Origin: Phyllosticta citribraziliensis
Taxonomy: Eukaryota
Direction: 5' to 3'
Length of the DNA: 57,384 nt
Assembly (NCBI RefSeq): GCF_038025025.1
Contig: NW_027117346.1
Span: forward strand, 1,860,001-1,917,384
Positions 20,253 to 57,384 of this stretch are shown here, piece by piece (position 1 is the first letter of the stretch; each line of letters starts with the position of its first letter). A program made the position numbers and the translations under genes. A model generated the notes under the pieces. That model had not been told where the DNA came from. It ran no database searches and saw only the letters and a program-made list of their open reading frames with translations.

Positions 20253-21968
20253 GACGAGCGGACACGGCGAGGGAGCAGAGCAGGAATGGGGTGCAAAGAG
20301 TCGGACGCGGGAGTGAGGAAGGCGACGAAGGCGGGTGAAAGGAGGCGATGGTGAGAGACTCGACGTCTCGGGCTGGGGCAAAGCCCAGGAGTCGTAGGCG
20401 TTATGCTCGCAAAACGGCGCAGGGTGCGGTGAAGGCGGGTGTCAGCCAGGAGTGGTGGAGGGGGAGGGCGGGCGCGTCGCGGGAAGAGAAGAGAAGAGGG
20501 TGTTGAGGTGGGCTGCCCGACGGGAGTGCGATCGAGAGGCAGAGGTTGCTTGGCGGCCGAGGCGCGGAGGCCGCCCGGAGCAAGGCAGTGGAGGGTTGGT
20601 TGAAAGGAAGCAAAGAGTCGAGGCGACCTGAGTTGTTGGCGGGCTGACAAAAGGAAACCGAAGCTGCGGGCGGTGACGCAGCCAAGGTGAGGTCAGAGGC
20701 GAGCGACGCTGACGACTGTGCGCGGGCTGGAGACACGGAAAAACATGGAGAGTTGGGAGGAAGAGGGTGTGAAGGGGGGAGAGAGAGAGGGCGAGAGGGC
20801 GAGAGGGCGAGAAAAACGGCAAAAGAGAAGCGGGAAGAGGGGCGTGAGGATATTACGGGAGCGATGGGATGCTCTGGTGCGGTATTTTTGGTTGGTGCCA
20901 TGGCAGAGCCACTCGCTACCTCAGTCTGCTACTCACAGGCAGGCAGCCCAGTCCAACAGCTTTGCGCGCTCCCACTCGGTATCCATGCTCTCAACCTCTG
21001 CTTTGATCATGGTGGTTGTTTCAACATGGTGGCTGACTTGTCCAACCCTCGTCTCGCAACACCTAGGTACAGTCCGATCCGGTGGTGGTGTGGTGTGTAT
21101 TCCGACCTCAACTCCAAACTTCTCCCACACCGTCACTCTTCAGCTCAACTTCATGCCCCAAAGTACATGTATGTACCTACACGCTCCGTCGCTATGGCTT
21201 TCCAGTTAGCCCTGCCGCCCTCAGTCAGTCGTCGGCTGCGCTTTTCTCGGACACCGGCGGCAGCACTGCGCATAGCTCCGGCTTCTCAACCACTCCAGCA
21301 CCCGATTGCAGCAGCCATCAGATCGCCCCAGCTCAGCTCTACGTCATTCACTCACCTTCATTACATGCCTCATGTTACCGTGTGCAACACCACACCACAG
21401 CATCGCATCCGGATTTGCCTCATTCACGCCTCCAACATCTTCAGCGTGAGCGCAGATTCGCACTTTGATGCCGTCCCCAGCCTGCAGCGCGCCCCCGCGT
21501 CAACGACCAATCATCAAAAGCCTCATACACTACTTCATCTTCGTCACATCAACTTGCTGTCCACATGTCGACGACTGAGTACTGCCGTCGCGCCGATGCA
21601 GGTACTCCTGCTGCTGCGCATGGCCTTGCTGCATTCAATCTCCTCAGCTTACAGTTACGTCAGCTGCCAGGTCAATCAACGGAACCAGCCAGGCAGTCCA
21701 CACACCGCCGTACCGCTGCCAAATCCGTAACTCGCGCGCCCACCGCCCGAATTTTTTTTCAAAGGGAAGACCTCGACTGTTTCCCAAGGCGCCCCGCTCA
21801 CCTGTCTGCGCTTGACTTGCCGTCTCGATGGTCCCATCTAACAGCCTCATCCTGGCCAACAACCTCGGTCGTGCGTCCTTGGCCACCCCCAACTGCAAAC
21901 CCGGAAACACGCTCTCCCGTGACTTTGCACTTCCAACCGACCTCGCAAAGAGTAAAAGCTCGCCTTGG

Positions 21969-47600: not shown

Positions 47601-48189
47601 GAGTTACTAGTAGACTTAGGAATATCTATCCTAATATTTTAATATAACTACTACTAGTAAGGTATTCTTCCCTAAGGGCTAGAATTAGGGATATACTTTA
47701 ATATAGACTACTAGCTAGCCTTTTAATTAATCTAATAGAGTATACTTAGTATCCTAGTATAATATAAGTACTAGGGGACTAAGTAATATAAAATAGGTAA
47801 CCTACCCTAAGTAGGGTATACTCCCTACTCCTAATCTAAAAGGGTCTAGTTCTAGGTCCTACTTAAAGCCTAAGGATTATTATAACTATAACTATAACTA
47901 TAAACTAACTATATATATATAATACTATACCTAGGATAGTTCTAAAAGTAAGTATAAGGATACTAATAAAGGAAGTAAAGATACTAAAAGTAATAAGGAT
48001 ACTAGTATAGAGACCCCTATAATTAATAAGGAGAAACTATAGTTAAATAATAGTAAGCCTATAATTATAATAGGAGCTAACTACTACTCCTAGTATAGAT
48101 ATATACTTACCTAGGATAATACTTTTAACTATACTCCTAGTAATAATATAATAGTACTTAATCCCTAGAAAGTATATAATAGCTACTAG
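44662..48189 (+). mobile_element. 5' part of a Gypsy-type element with a long leader and gag (Gypsy-C), RIP-inactivated
   Basis: Putative 172-bp LTR at 44662-44833 with inverted termini tattata...tataata. Gag motif DNISYFNPNL (DDIGYFDPxL) at ~47072. Cut at 48190 by the next insertion. Confidence 0.65.
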
Positions 48190-49002
48190 TATAGGCGGGA
48201 CTAGCTACTTACTAATATACTTACTTAGCCGGCCAAAATACTAGCACTAGAAGAGGTATAAGAGATAGTAACTAGTAGTAAATAAGTAGGCTCTATAGGA
48301 TAGGAATAAAATAACTACTAAACTAACTAAAATGAGCTACTATCTGGCTATTACTTTATTATCTAAGTAGTATAAGATTTAGGTATAAATAATAAGTATA
48401 AATAAATAAATAACTAAATATTTAGTAGATAATAGTTTAACCTAGTATAAAAAGACTTTATTTATATAAGTAGTACCTCTTAATAAGCAGCTATAAAAGG
48501 GGGTATATAACTAGCTAATCTACTACTAAAAATACTAATAATATAAAACCTCCTATTATAATTAAAGGTACTAAGTTTACTTATACTTTTATTAGCTATT
48601 ATTATTACTACTAAACTATATAGAACTATATCTTCCTAGTATTCTAGAGCTACCTATAGTCTTATTTTCTTACTAGCCTAATCTTCTACTTATATCTAAG
48701 CTAAAACTATAGCTAAGAATAAGAATAATAATTACTAAAAGTAACCCTTAAAAGCTATAAAAACTATACTAGCTAGTAGTACTATATATAGGGGGTACTC
48801 CTTATTTTACTATCCCCTAGTAAGTAAGAAGAAATAAGGATAAAAGGTAAGAGAGAGAGTATAAGCTATAGTCTATAGGAGGCTAGGTTAGAGTAGCTAA
48901 TTAGTATACTACTTACCTAGGTTATATATACTCCTATAAATAGGGCTAGTAGGTAAGATATTATCCTAGTCCTTATCCTTACTATACTTATTATAGTACT
49001 AG
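48190..49002 (-). mobile_element. Gypsy-D copy 1: 3' LTR (48190-48786) plus 216 bp of 3' internal region
   Basis: Direct repeat of 54298-55106. The LTR part is the reverse complement of 49003-49598. Confidence 0.85.
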
Positions 49003-52000
49003 TGTGGCACTGCTGGCTGGCACGGTTTTTGTAGCTTTTGATGGGTACTTTTGGTAATTGTAGTTCTTATTCTTAGCTGTGGTTTTAGCTTAGATATGAG
49101 TAGAAGATTAGGCTAGTAAGAAAATAAGACTATAGGTAGCTCTAGAATACTAGGAAGGTATAGTTCTATATAGTTTAGTAGTAATAATAATAGCTAATAA
49201 AAGTATAAGTAAATTTAGTATCTTTAGTAGTAATAGGAGGTTTTATACTATCTATATTTTTAGTAGTAGATTAGCTAGTTATATACCCCCTTTTATAGCT
49301 ACTTATTAAGAGGTACTACTTATATAAATAAAGTCTTTTATACTTAGTTAAACTATTATCTACTAAATACTTAGTTATTTATTTATTTATACTTATTATT
49401 TATATCTAAATCTTATACTACTTAGATAGTAAAGTAATAGCTAGATAGTAGCTTATTTTAATTAGTTTAGTAGTTATTTTATTCCTATCTTATAGAGCCT
49501 ACTTATTTACTACTAGTTATTATCTCTTATACCTCTTCTTATACTAGTATCTTAGCTAGCTAAGTAAGTATATTAGTAAGTAGCTAGTCCTACCTATATT
49601 TTATAGTATAGCTTCTATAGATTAGGAGCTTATTATTACCTAATTATATAAATATATAAGAGTAGTAGAAATTAGGTAAGTAAAAGGCTTTAAGATATTA
49701 CTAATAAGTACTATTAATTTTACCCTCCCCTACCTAGCCTATTATTAGATATTTACTATACTAGTTATTACTATTATACTAAAGATTATTTATTTAATTA
49801 TTTTAAGTACTATTTTATAGATACTATATAAGCTATAAGATTAATACTTATAATTTTATAGTAGAATAGTATATACTTTATAGAACTATAAAACTATACT
49901 ATTTAACTTTAGCTAGTTCTATTTTTATTAAGTATAATATTATCCTAGGTATTTCTACCTATAAAGTATAGAGGATAAGCCTAGATAGTTAATACTATAG
50001 TTTTTATATAATTATATTATAGATATTAGATTATTAAGGTCTATTAAGTTTCTAGGACTATTCTATTATATTATAAGGTTAGTAGTTTATATAATAAGTT
50101 ATAAAGGTAGATTTAGATATAATTATATAATAAATTTAATAACTAGCCTATAAGAACTATAAGTTCTTCTAGTAGATTAGGAAGAAATAGAAGAGGAGGA
50201 AGAGATATATTAAGAGGAGATAAAGAGAAGGGATAATAATCTAGCTCTTATAATAAAGGGTACTCTTCTAGAGGCTAGTAATAAGGGCCTATAATTACTT
50301 AAGAAGGACTATTTATAGTACCTCTATTACTAGTAATTAGTACTTAAGCTCCTTTATAAGGTATAAGGCTAGCTTTAGGTTTATTTAGACCTTTTACTAG
50401 ATTAGGTATACCTCCTATAATTATACTACTACTAGGGATAGATAGTAATAAAATAATATAGCTAAGCTAAGCTACTTAGCTAATATTAGATACTATAGAA
50501 ATAACTCTTTCTTAGCCTAGGGGAGAGTTATTATTACTAATAGAAGCTAACTAATATTATATAAGAATAGCTTCCCTAATATAGATAATTCTAATAAGCT
50601 AGATACTAGTACTAAAGTAAAGGCTATAATTTAGGGGAGATAATATATTATTATTCCTTAAAATATATAAATACTTTTATACTATAGCTAGGAGTCTCTT
50701 AGAAGAGTTTATACTAAAGCTAGTTTAATATTATAAAACCCTAATAGGCCTAGAAATCTATTATACTATTAAATTCTAGACTAGAGATTAGGAAGGTCTA
50801 AAAGTCTAGATATTAATATAATATAAGAACTAAGATACTAGTATAATTAATAGGAACTAAAGCTATATTAAGAACTTAGTTAAGAGATATAAGGACCTTT
50901 ATTACCCTTTTAAAGTAGATAAGTTCTTTAGGCTTTATAGGATACTTAATAATAAGATAGTAGAAGAAGGATATATTAATAAAAGTCTATAAGAGATATA
51001 GTTCCTTAATACCCTATATATAAATATAAGGACTAGGTTCTTATAAAAGGGGTATTTAATCTATAGAGCTAGAAATATTTAGTATCTCTAGTTATATATT
51101 AAGGCCTAGCTAGAATATAAGTAGTATATATTATTATACTCTATAGACTTACTAGAGGTTATAAATATAGTTATATACTATATTAAGGGGCTAGACTATA
51201 TTATAGACCCTATACTAATAAGAAGAGGATACCTCTTATAGTCTTCTCTATTACTTATAGTATTATCCTTTAATAGCTCTTCCTCTATAACTATAGCCTT
51301 AAGTAGATAATTAACCTCTAAGACTAGGACCCCTTTAATAAAGAGTAATAATACTATAATTAGAGACCTAGTAGATAAGCTAGCTAAGATATATATTAAA
51401 TTAATCTAGGAGGTTACTAGTTATATCTATAAATAGTTAGTAAATAGTAAGAAGTATAGGTATATTATAAATAATAGGGACCTATATATAAGAGTTATCT
51501 AATTATTATTTCTCTATAATAGCTCTATTAGGATAGGCTAGCTAGCTAGGTAGTATATACTACTACTAGAATAATATACTTTATAAGTAGGTCCTAGTCT
51601 TCTACTAATAAGGCTACTACTACCTAGAATAGCTCCTATAGGCTAATTATAGTATAACCTTAACTCCTATAACTAGGTAGGACCTACTAGTTTAAATATA
51701 AACTAAAGTATAGGAATAGGAGAATACTAGAGTTATAATAAAATAGGCTATATAATTAGGAGTTATCCTATTCTATTACCTTTTATATATACTAGCCTTA
51801 TATCTATTAGTTAAAATAGATATATCTAGGACTTTAATAGCTAGCTAATATTAACTTATAAGTAGAATAAATAGCTAGATATTAAGAAGTACTTATAGTA
51901 TTAGGGATAGATAAATAATAATAATTTACTAAAAATACTACTAGTACTAGAATAATAAATAACTCCTTACTAGACTAGGGGAGAGTTATTATCTTAATCT

Positions 52001-54297
52001 ATAATAAATAAAGAACTATAAGGATATTAGCCCCTACTATAAATTAATACTAGATATAATATACCTTTAGACTATAGCTAATATAATTAAGACTAATATA
52101 ACTAAGACTAGGGCTAGTATACTTAGATTAACTATACTTAGGCTAATATAGAGGATAGTAGGCCTTATTTCTATTAGATTTACTATTATAATAAAGGAAT
52201 AATATATAGTATATACTATTTTAAGGCTAAAGTACCTCCTAGAAATATAATCTTTATAAACCTAATAAAGATTATAAAATATATAAGGAAGCTAAAGAAG
52301 CTAGCTAGGAGAAGAGGAGCTAAAATCTTATAAATAGTAGTTAATAAAATAGCTATTAATAAATAAGTTAGGAATATAGCTAAATAGGTAATAACTAATA
52401 AGACTAGGAATATATCTAATAAGGATATTCTAGATATAACCCTATTAGTAAATATACCTTAATAACTAAGATAATTAGCTATTACTAGTCTACTAGATAG
52501 TAAAGTTAAAGAACCTACTATCTCTAGTAAAGAGCCTACTTAGAAGCCTAATATAGATAAACCTTAAAGGGTAATAGTAGAGGATACTAATAAGGATATA
52601 TCTAATATTAAAGAAATCCTATAAAATAAGCTAAGTATTATACTTAAGGGATTAAAGAATAATAAGCTAGAGCTACTTAGTAAAGGGGCCCCTCCTAAGT
52701 AGTACTAGATTAAAACTATTATATTTAGAGACCTATTCTATTATAAATAGTATAAACTAGGCCTAAATAGCTAGAGATATAGAGATATCTTTAGTAAGGA
52801 GACTATTAGGTATATAAAAGGAATCCTTAGCCTATATAATAATATATAGAAATTATTTTATACCCCTATTAGTACTAAGATTATAGAAGAGATCTAAGAA
52901 ATACTCTATAATAACCTATAGGTACTAAATAAATACCTATATATAATAGAGGACTTATAAAAGCTAATATATACTATATATATAGAACTAGTTAATAATA
53001 TTAAAGGATACTAGTTTAACTCCTTTAATAAGCCTATAAAATTTAACTTCTCCTAGTATTACCTATTTAAGTAAGAGGATTATTTCCTAGATAGGATCTT
53101 TATATATTTAAATATACTAATAAATATATTAGTTACTAAGGGTAAATCTATCTTTAGAGTCTTTAACTATATATATATAAGCCTAGCTTATACTATAAAG
53201 TATATATCTACTTAGAGCTTTATTTTATATAGGCCTAATAATAAGCCCCTTTAGGATAGTAAGCCTATAAACCTATTAATATATAAGATATACTTTAGTA
53301 TTAAAATACTAGAAGATTAGGAGGATTCTATAACTATTAAAGGAGACTATAAGCTAAAGCTAATAACTTATAAAGAGGTTATAATACTAGCTAAATAATA
53401 GGGCCTTATTATCTACTAGGTCCTATTACCCTTTATCCTAGTATCTTTTAGTGGCTATATAGTATAAGTACTAGTAGATATAGGAGTAAATATAAATAGT
53501 ATTTCTAAGGCCCTTATAGCTAAACTTAGTATCCTAGTATAGGATATACTACCTAATAGTTTTAATATAACTATAGGATTTATAAATAGTTTAAAGTATA
53601 AAATTAAATAATAGATCCTAAGTTTAGCTATTTAAATAGGAGATTAGTCCTAGAATACTTATTTCCTAGTATATAACTAAACTACTATCCCTATTATATT
53701 AGGAATACCCTAGATTATCTTAGTAGGTAGTAAATTTAAAACTATACCTATTAGAGTAGTTAAGCTATAGTTTACCTACCCTATTAACCCTTATTACTAT
53801 ATAGAAATTATTACCTACTAGGCATTCCTATTTATTAAAGGTATTAAAGATACTATGTACTATATAGGTCCTATTAGAATCTAAAGTAGTAATAGTATAT
53901 AAGTAGCTAGGCTAGAAAACTAGCTAGTATAATAATTTAGGGGCTAATTAGTATATAATTACTATACTAACTAGTAGGAGGCCTATTTAATTAAAATAAA
54001 TAAAATATTAAAAATATTAATTTAGTATTAGATAATATATTTTTAACTATATATATAATAGGAGAATAGAGTATTATTTAATATAGGGTATCTTAATATA
54101 GTATATTCTCTAATTATCTTAATACTACTAGATAATAAAACCCGCACTAGTATATAGTATATAAATAAAAAGGTATAAAAATAGAGCCTATAGATAACTT
54201 AATACTATAGGAAGAGTTATTAAATATAATTAAGGGATAGAAAACTAAAGAAACTATAATTACTAAGTAGACTACTATACTAGTAAGGGACCTCTAG
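49003..54297 (+). mobile_element. Gypsy-D copy 2: 5' LTR (49003-49598), gag-protease and start of pol
   Basis: The LTR begins TGTGGCAC and ends with a RIPed form of CCCGCCCACA (TG...CA, tgtgg/ccaca termini). Protease VLVDIGVNINSI (VLVDTGANVN) at ~53468. A YK*KGIKIEPID motif (YKRK...PVD type) at ~54158 marks the pol start. Cut at 54298. Confidence 0.85.
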
Positions 54298-57159
54298 TGT
54301 GGGCGGGACCAGCTACTCACTAATATGCTTGCTTAGCTGGCTAAGATGCCAGCACTAGAAGAGGCATAAGAGACAGTAACTAGCAGTAAATGAGTAGGCT
54401 CTATAGGATAGGAATAAAATAACTACTAAACTAACTAAAATAAGCTACTATCTAGCTATTACTTTACTATCTAAGTAGTATAAGATTTAGATATAAATAA
54501 TAAGTATAAATAAATAAATAACTAAGTATTTAGTAGATAATAGTTTAACTAAGTATAAAAGACTTTATTTATATAAGTAGTACCTCTTAATAAGTAGCTA
54601 TAAAAGGGGGTATATAACTAGCTAATCTACTACTAAAATACTAATAGTATAAAACCTCCTATTACTACTAAAGATACTAAATTTACTTATACTTTTATTA
54701 GCTATTATTATTACTACTAAACTATATAGAACTATACCTTCCTAATATTCTAGAGCTACTTATAATCTTATTTTCTTACTAGCCTAATCTTCTACTTATA
54801 TCTAAGCTAAAACTATAGCTAAGAATAAGAACTATAATTACTAAAAGTACCTATTAAAAGCTATAAAACTATACTAATAAGTAGTACTATATATAGGGGG
54901 GTACTCCTTATTTTACTATCCCCTAGTAAGTAAGAAGAAATAAGGATAAAAGGTAAAAGAGAGAATAAGCTATAGTTTATAGGAGGCTAGGTTAGAGTAG
55001 CTAATTAATATATTACTTACCTAGGTTATATATACTCCTATAAATAGGGCTAGTAGGTAAGATATTATCCTAGTCCTTATTCTTACTATACTTATTATAG
55101 TACTAGATACCTATAGCTTTAATAATATCCTTATTAATTAGTAAAGGCTTATTAGGAGTAGGCCTAGTAATATTATTATCCTTATAGTAAAAGTAGGACT
55201 TCTTACTAAAGGTATACTTCTCCTCTTTAATAAAGACTAGGAATAGCTTATTATAAATATTAATTATATTTAGCTCTATATTATAGAAATAGCTAGCTAG
55301 TACCTTAGGATTATTAGCTATATCTATAACCTTCTTAACTTCCTTTATAACTAATAGGGAGTTCTAGTAATAAGAGTAGACTAGAGTATTACTAATTAGA
55401 TTAATACTAATTACCTCTACTAATACTAGAAACTTATAGGGGTAATAGCTATATATATATAGGAAATTAGAAGGTATAACCTTAGGAGGGACCTAGTTCT
55501 TATAATAGGTAGCTAGCTCTATCTAAGTACCTAATTTATTAATTTTAAGATAGTTATAGTCCTAATTAACTTTATAGTACTATAGGAAAATTATCTTATA
55601 TATACCCTTTACTAGTCCCTTAGCTCTATATAGTATTATTAGGTAAGAAATTCTAGTACTATAGGCTACTACCTTATTATTAGACTAGCCTAGGCCTCTA
55701 TCCTTAATAAATTTAATAAGATAGTTAAGGATTAGACCCTTCTTAATATTAGTAATACCTATTATATTTATAGGGTTATATATATTCTTAATAATAGTAC
55801 TATCCCTATAATCCTTAAAATAAGGTATAAAGCCCTTTATTAAAATTATATAGTCTATATTAGTCTTACTATTAAGGGAAATAGTACCCTAAATTATATT
55901 AATATCCCTATTAGTATTAGTATATTTATTTAAGTTAATATTAAAATAATAGAAATTAATATTATTACCCTTCTTTTAGTCCTTAGTATAGTATAGTATT
56001 ATATAGAGCTAGTAGGTATAGTTAGGCCTAAATAAAATATAAAGGAGCTAGTATACTAGGTACTAGTAGATAAGCTACTATACTAATAAATAGAATATTA
56101 TATAATTCTAGCCTAAATTCTAGTAAGTATTAATTTCCTACTAGTACTAGAAGTAGTAGCTAAACTCCTTATTAATTTTAGAGTATATACTATCTAAGAA
56201 ATTAAAGAGAGAGTTATTAATAACTAAATTATTAGTAGCCTTAAACTTACTAAGTAGAGTATTAATAAGGTCTAGATACTAGTTATAGCCTATTCTAAAT
56301 AGAGTAGTAAGACTCTTATTAAGGGTAGAGATTATATTTTAAATTATAGCTATAATTTCCTTAAATTAGGTATTATAGTTATAGCTAAATATATATAAGC
56401 TAATAGTATTAGTAGGGTAAATAAGGTAAAAAGATAGTATAAACTAATAGTACCTATCCTTATAGGATAGGATATTAGATAATCTTTTATAGTTATACTA
56501 AATATATTTTAAATAAAAGTAAATAATATTATCTATTCTCTACTTAATTTAAAGACCTAAGTACTTACTAATCCTATAGATATAAGAGTTATAGTAGTTA
56601 CTTAAGTTATACTAGTCTTTAGCCTTATTAAGCTTAAAAAGCTTCTTTTACTAGGATTCTTTAAATATAGGAATAGCCTTAATAGGAAACTTCTTATAAA
56701 ATCTAGTAGATAAGATCTAGCTATTAATTCTAGTATAGATATAGTATTTAGCTATATAAATCTTCTTAGTACTATTAGTTAGAGATATAATAATAACTTC
56801 TAGGTCTAAATCTACCTTATTATTACTATAGACTTCTTCCTTATTATCCTTATTTATTAGGATAATAGTATTATTATTATTACTTCTATAGACTAAACTT
56901 TTTATAGTTAGTATAATTCTCTAGTATATATTAGGGGTAGTAAGAGGGGGGTTAAGATAGTAGTATTTATTAGGTTCTTTCTTTTAGGGAGGGGACCTCT
57001 ATTACTTTAAAGTATTTTAGATATTATTTCTAGAGAAGTTATAGCTTAGGGCTATATTTATAATATTATTAGATAGCCTTAATATATTAAGGATATTTAC
57101 TAAATTATTACTAGGACTAGTAAAACTAATAATAGAATTATTTATAAAAAGTACTATTA
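54298..57159 (-). mobile_element. Gypsy-D copy 3: 3' LTR (54298-54891) and 3' internal region with an extra ORF
   Basis: The LTR starts tgtgggcgggacc on the + strand. The next 216 bp match 48787-49002 and then continue into new sequence. Confidence 0.85.
55013..57159 (-). pseudogene. RIP-degraded ORF (~715 codons) of unknown function, just upstream of the Gypsy-D 3' LTR
   Basis: Manual translation gives one continuous protein-like frame interrupted only by scattered TAA/TAG (expected RIP products of CAA/CAG/TGG/CGA), e.g. ...EVKKVIDIANNPKVLASYF... and ...KGLILNYLIKFIKDRGLG*S.... No RT, RNase H or integrase motif was seen. Confidence 0.6.
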
Positions 57160-57384
57160 TGATAGGCGTACACGCGCCTACACGAGCACCAGGGCTAGTA
57201 TAGACAAACCCAGCATCGCGCGGTTATAAGAAGCATAAGCCTCACCTCAGGCAGCAGCCTGCTATAGCTTAGGCTAAAACCTGCAGGCTGGCACCAGCCA
57301 CTACAGCCTAGCACCAGCCACTGCGGCCCTAGGCAGATACCACATAACAGCCCATTAATACCTCACCTTCATAACTCACCTAAC
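57160..57384. mobile_element. End of a younger, weakly RIPed insertion, probably an LTR; continues beyond the window
   Basis: Abrupt return of CpA/CpG starting at TGATAGGCG. Contains a terminal hairpin TAGGCG...CGCCTA and a short tandem repeat gcaccagccact(a/g)c(a/g)gcc. Confidence 0.5.

Follow-up and report, generated by a model that had tools for sequence, protein, structure and literature searches.

Dioxygenases carried by transposons are known in two forms, TET/JBP enzymes on fungal DNA transposons and AlkB enzymes in Gypsy elements of orchids. TET/JBP genes occur as cargo on eleven fungal DNA-transposon lineages and have been proposed to counter methylation-based silencing; the main text of that report states that TET/JBP was found on no retrotransposon, and contains neither 'phytanoyl' nor 'AlkB' (PMC12730594). 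Ty3/Gypsy elements of Phalaenopsis are described, in the passages devoted to them, as having an extra open reading frame (ORF) for an AlkB-type 2-oxoglutarate-dependent dioxygenase, which is retained across subfamilies and demethylates m6A RNA in vitro (PMC9289625). Passages on the Ylt1-like Gypsy elements of fungi name no dioxygenase ORF (PMC2864245, PMC3248453), and no such cargo was seen in the literature covered, which included parts of PMC5872316 and PMC13297926. Our search, whose scope excluded supplements, Repbase and most subscription papers, found no report of a dioxygenase borne by a fungal long terminal repeat (LTR) element or of a PhyH-like one on a transposon. Here we analysed a stretch of 57,384 nucleotides from Phyllosticta citribraziliensis (contig NW_027117346.1, positions 1,860,001 to 1,917,384; the window). 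Near its end lies a dead copy of the third gene, ORF3, of a 13.4-kb Ty3/Gypsy retrotransposon, whose C-terminal half almost certainly was a Gig2/PhyH-like 2-oxoglutarate- and Fe(II)-dependent (2OG-Fe(II)) dioxygenase.

The last 28 kb of the window form an AT-rich block (GC ~0.25) nearly without CpA and TpG, the mark of saturating repeat-induced point mutation (RIP). An earlier note, made from the letters of the window, had pointed to a minus-strand frame of about 715 codons with roughly 6% stops by hand count, running up to about 120 bp before a 3' LTR. The computed values agree with this: the frame starts at 57157, not 57159 (the frame begun there has 75 stops), contains 37 stops in 715 codons (5.2%; 28 TAG, 9 TAA), compared with 7.7-22.8% in the other five frames of the stretch, and stops 122 bp short of the 594-bp 3' LTR (54891-54298). 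In 500 dinucleotide shuffles the lowest stop rate of the six frames was 0.110 +/- 0.007 and none reached 0.052, which rejects a frame open by chance. As RIP simulated on four intact ORF3 relatives leaves 7-9% stops, the observed rate lies at or under that of a ruined real gene. The low-stop frame is confirmed as the remnant of a gene. That all stops are TAA or TAG was counted correctly but has no evidential value, since RIP has erased every TpG and CpA of the stretch (dinucleotide counts CA 0, TG 0, CG 0), making TGA impossible in any frame. Three smaller statements of the same note also held: an acidic patch near 56850 was located at ~56890-56794, the final ~30 codons are found again in copy 1 of the element (48910-49002; 99% over ~31 codons), and the 5' side is truncated at 57160, where an LTR of a different family is nested.

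The flanking DNA of eight other contigs gave an element length of 13.35 kb and the order LTR, gag/protease, reverse transcriptase (RT)/RNase H/integrase, ORF3, LTR. The domain order of the window element was read by aligning it to two intact relatives, L057 and L058, whose domains were typed with Pfam. This RIP-aware alignment covers the protease and ~1000 pol residues through the integrase, with a score of 1312 (next best 57.5), and the RNase H was also matched by Pfam in the C2 copy (E 2.1e-5). The order from protease to integrase and then ORF3 was thereby found, including the RT-RNase H-integrase-ORF3 order that had been proposed as a check. ORF3 comprises 1133 codons on the sense strand and begins ~0.8 kb past pol, so it is not the C-terminus of the integrase. 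Elsewhere in the genome, at least nine sites align with 1.3-2.1 kb of the stretch at 91-95%, and the region is therefore part of the element and not a private nested insertion. Three of the four full-length ORF3 copies have no net indel, and small frameshifts occur in the remaining one and in two partial copies; on all three counts (frame, integrase, presence in other copies) the proposal of a family-wide ORF withstood comparison. All 12 ORF3 copies compared are RIP-saturated and every one is dead, with a stop in every covering copy at 62 of the 1133 columns and in some copies at 6.

The LTR of the family has at least 43 genomic matches. Its LTRs measure 594-596 bp and their least-damaged ends read TGTGG...CCCACA, as direct LTRs with TG...CA. 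CTAG stands on 8 of 10 outer 5' flanks and 10 of 12 3' flanks among those listed, counts made with no chance control, and flanks two solo LTRs on both sides. As a side observation, the sites of the family mostly read CTAG (in the window at 49003, 54298 and 48186, and in other copies), and a CTAG seen after RIP could derive from several related 4-mers; target-site duplications of relatives of the intact family read CTAC, CTAG, ATAG and ATAC. The family has repeatedly inserted into itself, copy 2 into ORF3 of copy 1 and copy 3 into copy 2 at the start of pol. Copies C7, C10 and C13 likewise contain nested LTRs of the family that cuts copy 3 at 57160. The start of contig C12 (L039:1-4) falls at the same ORF3 position as the cut in the window (57157-57160); the two copies are 95% identical with different 3' flanks, and the shared break may reflect a hot spot of the nested family or an assembly break.

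The suggestion of an uncharacterised third sense gene after the integrase was right as to position and sharing among copies. The gene is larger than supposed, and the label 'unknown' was not supported, its C-terminal half being recognisable. Pfam found no family at E<=10 in ORF3 read with stops as X, and a word-based protein search with the C-terminal part returned 6294 candidates, none at E<=1e-3, because RIP destroys exact words. A profile of five X-read copies, searched against 1.84 billion representatives, gave 114 matches at E<=1e-3, all on codons 715-1090; the top match is a 51-aa RIP-like fragment, and the best full-length match reached 4.7e-16. The matched sequences are hypothetical proteins of ~800-1100 aa. 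Aligned with this family by hhalign, ORF3 matched over codons 600-1083 with a probability of 99.55 (E 1.7e-23). Of 101 aligned family-conserved positions, 39 carry the same residue, 45 a RIP-type derivative and 17 some other residue, giving 84 compatible positions vs 17.7 by chance. Among 48 aligned relatives His593, His693 and Arg703 are invariant and Asp595 is present in at least 90%; the HxD..H..R facial triad with distal Arg is complete in the intact relatives. The same four columns read Tyr, Asn, Tyr and Tyr in the copies of this genome, all RIP-type codons. Of 119 long relatives, 98 combine HxD with the distal His motif and with CxC..CxxH. When 37 relatives were compared with Pfam, 10 matched PhyH (PF05721) at E<=0.01, 4 of them above the curated cut-off, and none matched the TET/JBP or AlkB-type families. 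Profile searches of the PDB sequences with A2 and A3 gave best E values of 0.08 and 0.5.

The fold points in the same direction. A model of the relative P0007 (mean predicted local distance difference test, pLDDT, 81) is predicted to have the double-stranded beta-helix fold of the dioxygenase family and aligns best with YbiU (4rgk; Z 20.3, root-mean-square deviation 3.2, 278 aligned) and Gig2 (6akz; Z 19.1, 3.5, 280 aligned). PhyH-type enzymes follow at Z 14-15, among them human PhyH (2a1x, Z 14.4), and a PhyH-fold chain of an RNA-editing complex (8fnc) scores Z 14.9. Other top matches are the biosynthetic or metabolic oxygenases EvdO1, KanJ and EctD. Prolyl and other protein hydroxylases lie at Z 10-11, and ALKBH3 (rank 39, Z 8.8), NgTET1 (rank 46, Z 8.5) and JMJD3 (Z 8.5) further down; judged by this model, neither TET/JBP nor AlkB is the nearest structural kin. 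The Atlas neighbours, at 0.92, belong to clusters of PhyH/Gig2-like type. The viral structures that match are PhyH-like proteins of giant viruses and phages, similar in fold only (10-16% identity), and 88 pattern matches on viral contigs included no relative. Profile and fold place the family in the PhyH/Gig2-like clade (PF05721/PF07350); the sequence match is weak, so that it forms a distinct subfamily.

ORF3 encoded a soluble multidomain protein, in which an N-region and an acidic linker precede the Cys/His motif, its basic segment and, last, the dioxygenase. The relatives carry a conserved N-domain of ~200 aa, the acidic linker and the basic Cys/His module. Their linker has a median net charge of -10.7 per 100 aa (96 relatives) and a pLDDT <50 at residues 218-343 of P0007, the segment from the Cys/His motif onward a net charge of +9.1 per 100 aa. 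The usual N-domain of the family folds confidently (pLDDT 94.7). It had no Foldseek match at E<=0.001, a best PDB match of Z 6.0 over 50 residues and no usable Atlas match, and such poor matches do not establish a new fold. Codons 1-470 of the window family gave nothing above shuffles in RIP-aware alignment with 51 relatives; among 412 proteins and ORFs the best score was 55 (shuffles 51-60), and RIP-aware profiles of the family N-domain gave ~-1 bits, like shuffles. As a control, held-out relatives degraded in silico were recovered in 11 of 13 cases (22-127 bits), so a distant version of the N-domain may have gone undetected. On this comparison of sequences, the N-terminal half would either have been swapped or be a very distant form of the family's domain. 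Its hydrophobicity in the window copy is uninformative, as RIP inflates Ile, Tyr and Leu.

A second search yielded 122 proteins at E<=1e-10, and all with an organism name belong to the Pezizomycotina (filamentous ascomycetes), and they span Leotio-, Eurotio-, Lecanoro-, Dothideo-, Sordario- and Pezizomycetes. Scanning of metagenomes gave at least 359 confirmed relatives, of which the best 80 loci were analysed. In 31 of these 80 the relative is preceded by an RT/RNase H in the same orientation, and many of the remaining 49 do not extend far enough for this to be judged. Two loci, L057 and L058, are intact Gypsy elements made up of LTR, gag-protease, RT-RNase H-integrase, an ORF3 of 986-988 codons and LTR. 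In L058 the two LTRs are 99.6% identical and start with TGTGG and end with CCCACA; a 4-bp duplication flanks them. No chromodomain was detected in the pol of the intact relatives, and ORF3 follows pol at 0.35-0.8 kb in the relatives and the window element. Between L057 and L058, the one pair compared, the ratio of nonsynonymous to synonymous substitutions (dN/dS) is 0.085 for ORF3 (0.048 for its C-terminal half), 0.09 for pol and 0.21 for gag-protease, at a dS of 0.33. As genes of the element, the intact ORF3 relatives experience strong purifying selection. L072 represents a second Gypsy group (pol 47%), and with the window element and L057/L058 at least three Gypsy groups have ORF3 in the same position. 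Stop-free relatives without RT adjoin Helitron genes (L084, L106), Plavaka (L100) and RecQ-type helicase genes (L053, L060, L116), and another such relative, in L061, has an rva_4 integrase nearby within inverted repeats. No clear metabolic neighbour was found among 40 flanking ORFs scanned, and no RNA run was found for the ORF3 of L058. In a quick tree (37 rows, one of them, P0022, mis-cut) carriers are not grouped by element class; with its unresolved backbone this tree is too weak for the direction of transfer.

Some of these loci hold further genes. In L075 (3828-11611) a pair of 290-bp inverted repeats encloses an intact dioxygenase gene, the remnant of an integrase C-terminus and a paralogue of 1044 codons that lacks HxD; a further piece of a paralogue is at ~20361-21509. 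ORFs of ~1280 aa without a Pfam match and with 24% mutual identity are near relatives in three loci (L052:1070-4906, L064:3263-7126, L065:19009-19710) and are perhaps an unrecognised transposase or a partner gene. The contig of L127 looks fungal and shows partial RIP damage; near its dioxygenase relative is an ORF (22-1365) that matches RelA/SpoT in Pfam (E 1.5e-11).

As to what the enzyme did, the reading we lean towards, at a little less than even confidence, is that it served the element by counter-silencing through action on nucleic acid or chromatin. It would oxidise a methylated or otherwise modified DNA or RNA base, or a chromatin protein, and would dock via the basic Cys/His module. 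Silencing by the host might thereby be loosened long enough for transcription and transposition, with RIP not being prevented in the long term. Given the gap behind pol, expression of ORF3 would need an internal promoter of its own or a spliced RNA. Several observations point this way. The spread over unrelated element classes suggests that all of them share the target, which could be host silencing; the basic Cys/His segment resembles nucleic-acid-binding modules; and both precedents, TET/JBP by proposal and the orchid AlkB by assay, point to counter-silencing. We also count in its favour the PhyH-fold chain in the RNA-editing complex and the restriction of the named relatives to the Pezizomycotina, a group described in the main text of the TET/JBP report as having RIP and RID (PMC12730594).

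Against counter-silencing stand a number of points. Of the 31 Gypsy carriers among the 80 loci, 29 have stops in the dioxygenase domain and lowered CpA/TpG indices; together with the 12 damaged copies here, this indicates that the cargo is no lasting block to RIP. Most other Gypsy carriers form one family cluster (64-94% to the pol of L058), the selection estimate comes from a single pair, and the Helitron, Plavaka and RecQ cases are adjacency only, with element boundaries not drawn. The dioxygenase domain itself is not basic (net charge -0.6 per 100 aa). Most of the nearest folds belong to small-molecule hydroxylases or to entries without an assigned function; ALKBH3 and NgTET1, dioxygenases known to act on nucleic acid, score far below YbiU and Gig2. 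Finally, the ~470 N-terminal codons do not match the N-domain of the family, so that targeting by this copy may not have been that of the modelled relatives. A bolder version, which we regard as possible though doubtful, has the family as a third class of 2OG dioxygenase that edits nucleic acid or chromatin. With no relation to TET or AlkB, it would descend from the Gig2/PhyH branch and would be traded among retrotransposons, Helitrons and DNA transposons of filamentous ascomycetes against silencing by RID/DIM-2-type methylation, the window element having a swapped N-terminal targeting domain of a kind not seen before.

The same architecture could belong to a protein hydroxylase, with the N-domain and the Cys/His module as adaptors. 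Its target would be either Gag/Pol of the element itself or a host defence factor from the machinery of RNA interference, RIP or heterochromatin. Protein hydroxylases share the fold, the motif-less paralogue beside an intact copy in L075 suggests a binding role apart from catalysis, and the different N-terminal half of this copy is what an adaptor swap would give; the presence beside unrelated element classes argues against a target specific to Gag/Pol, and we consider a protein substrate unlikely. A hydroxylase of metabolites or small molecules, retained by the elements for a benefit to the host or the cell state, is in our estimate rather improbable. It would agree with the top folds (YbiU/Gig2, EvdO1, KanJ, EctD, PhyH), the PhyH/Gig2-like Atlas clusters and the lack of basic charge on the dioxygenase domain, but lone metabolic PhyH enzymes have no N-domain, acidic linker or basic Cys/His module, and the gene is patchy, mobile, free of clear metabolic neighbours among the flanking ORFs scanned, and multicopy, having been killed here by RIP without apparent loss to the host. 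Accidental capture of a host gene, which then travelled along as a neutral passenger, is very unlikely. Repeated capture would explain why the quick tree, with its unresolved backbone, does not group the Gypsy-borne copies, yet the dN/dS between two intact elements largely refutes neutrality, ORF3 occupies a constant place in at least three Gypsy groups, and selection at the level of pol inside elements also makes the captured host cargo of the earlier note a poor fit. An env-like membrane or fusion protein, which the same note had considered, has next to nothing in its favour except the sense position after the integrase, and is rejected for the C-terminal half by the dioxygenase homology and fold and by the hydrophobicity of 119 intact relatives, none of which has a Kyte-Doolittle 19-residue segment of >=1.9 (>=1.6 in 6 of 119; no dedicated signal-peptide program was used).

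Features of the window and the evidence for each.
Feature	Position	Strand	Evidence
3' 715 codons (~aa 420-1133) of RIP-ruined ORF3, Gypsy copy 3	55013..57157	-	frame, copy comparison
Remnant of the acidic linker; its counterpart in intact relatives is acidic and disordered	56794..56890	-	charge, pLDDT of relatives
Site of the family's putative zinc-binding CxC...CxxH motif and start of basic segment	56582..56743	-	Cys/His columns now Tyr; CxC column placed by eye (misplaced by the aligner), CxxH column by alignment
Ruined domain, almost certainly a Gig2/PhyH-like 2OG-Fe(II) dioxygenase (~aa 728-1090)	55145..56233	-	profile, alignment, fold of relative
HxD iron-binding column; now Tyr-Phe-Asn, RIP-type codons	55940..55948	-	alignment to relatives
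Distal His and conserved Arg (2-oxoglutarate-binding position by analogy), both now Tyr	55598..55630	-	alignment
Copy 3 3' LTR, 594 bp, then CTAG	54298..54891	-	LTR comparison
Copy 2: 5' LTR (49003-49598, begins TGTGG) and gag-protease, same family	49003..54297	+	96% to C2 copy over 4.8 kb
Copy 1: final ~31 ORF3 codons and 3' LTR; broken by copy 2	48186..49002	-	repeat comparison
LTR end of a different family inserted in ORF3; contig ends at 57384	57160..57384	-	repeat comparison

The RIP block holds two other repeat pairs, a 648-bp inverted pair (35589-36236/41876-42523; 87%) and a 183-bp direct pair (29032-29214/34853-35035; 91%) 5.8 kb apart, which are probably further elements.

Compared with the described systems, the family shares with the TET/JBP cargo a 2OG-Fe(II) dioxygenase on several unrelated classes of fungal elements, including Helitron and Plavaka. 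As far as the main text of that report describes it, the TET/JBP cargo is found on DNA transposons, whereas the ORF3 family is also found on LTR retrotransposons, and the TET/JBP PE type has HxE in place of the HxD seen here, with Asp in at least 90% of 48 rows (PMC12730594). The nearest folds here are Gig2, YbiU and PhyH (Z 20-14), in contrast to NgTET1 (Z 8.5). The orchid elements are likewise Gypsy elements with an extra 2OG dioxygenase ORF; theirs is, in the passages cited, of the AlkB clade, recent and confined to orchids, whereas ORF3 is Gig2/PhyH-like, fungal, widespread and equipped with extra domains (PMC9289625). Ylt1-like fungal Gypsy elements, as described in part, resemble the present ones in having no detected chromodomain, a likeness noted without clade placement by a reference tree (PMC2864245, PMC3248453). 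With Gig2/DUF1479 (YbiU) and PhyH themselves the family has the core fold and the HxD..H..R site in common, but the identity is 11-14%, and the ORF3 proteins are fused to the N-domain and the Cys/His module and are mobile, not housekeeping.

Ascomycete Gypsy elements thus keep a dioxygenase of a third branch as tightly as their polymerase. The dead copy of the window contributes only its unusual N-terminal half; because intact natural genes exist, it is directly testable whether transposons of filamentous ascomycetes encode an enzyme acting against methylation-based defence, and if the substrate were a base or a histone mark, the dioxygenase would represent a new class of epigenetic enzyme. 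The family is an apparently undescribed mobile Gig2/PhyH-like dioxygenase, similar in arrangement to the TET/JBP and AlkB cases and a member of neither.
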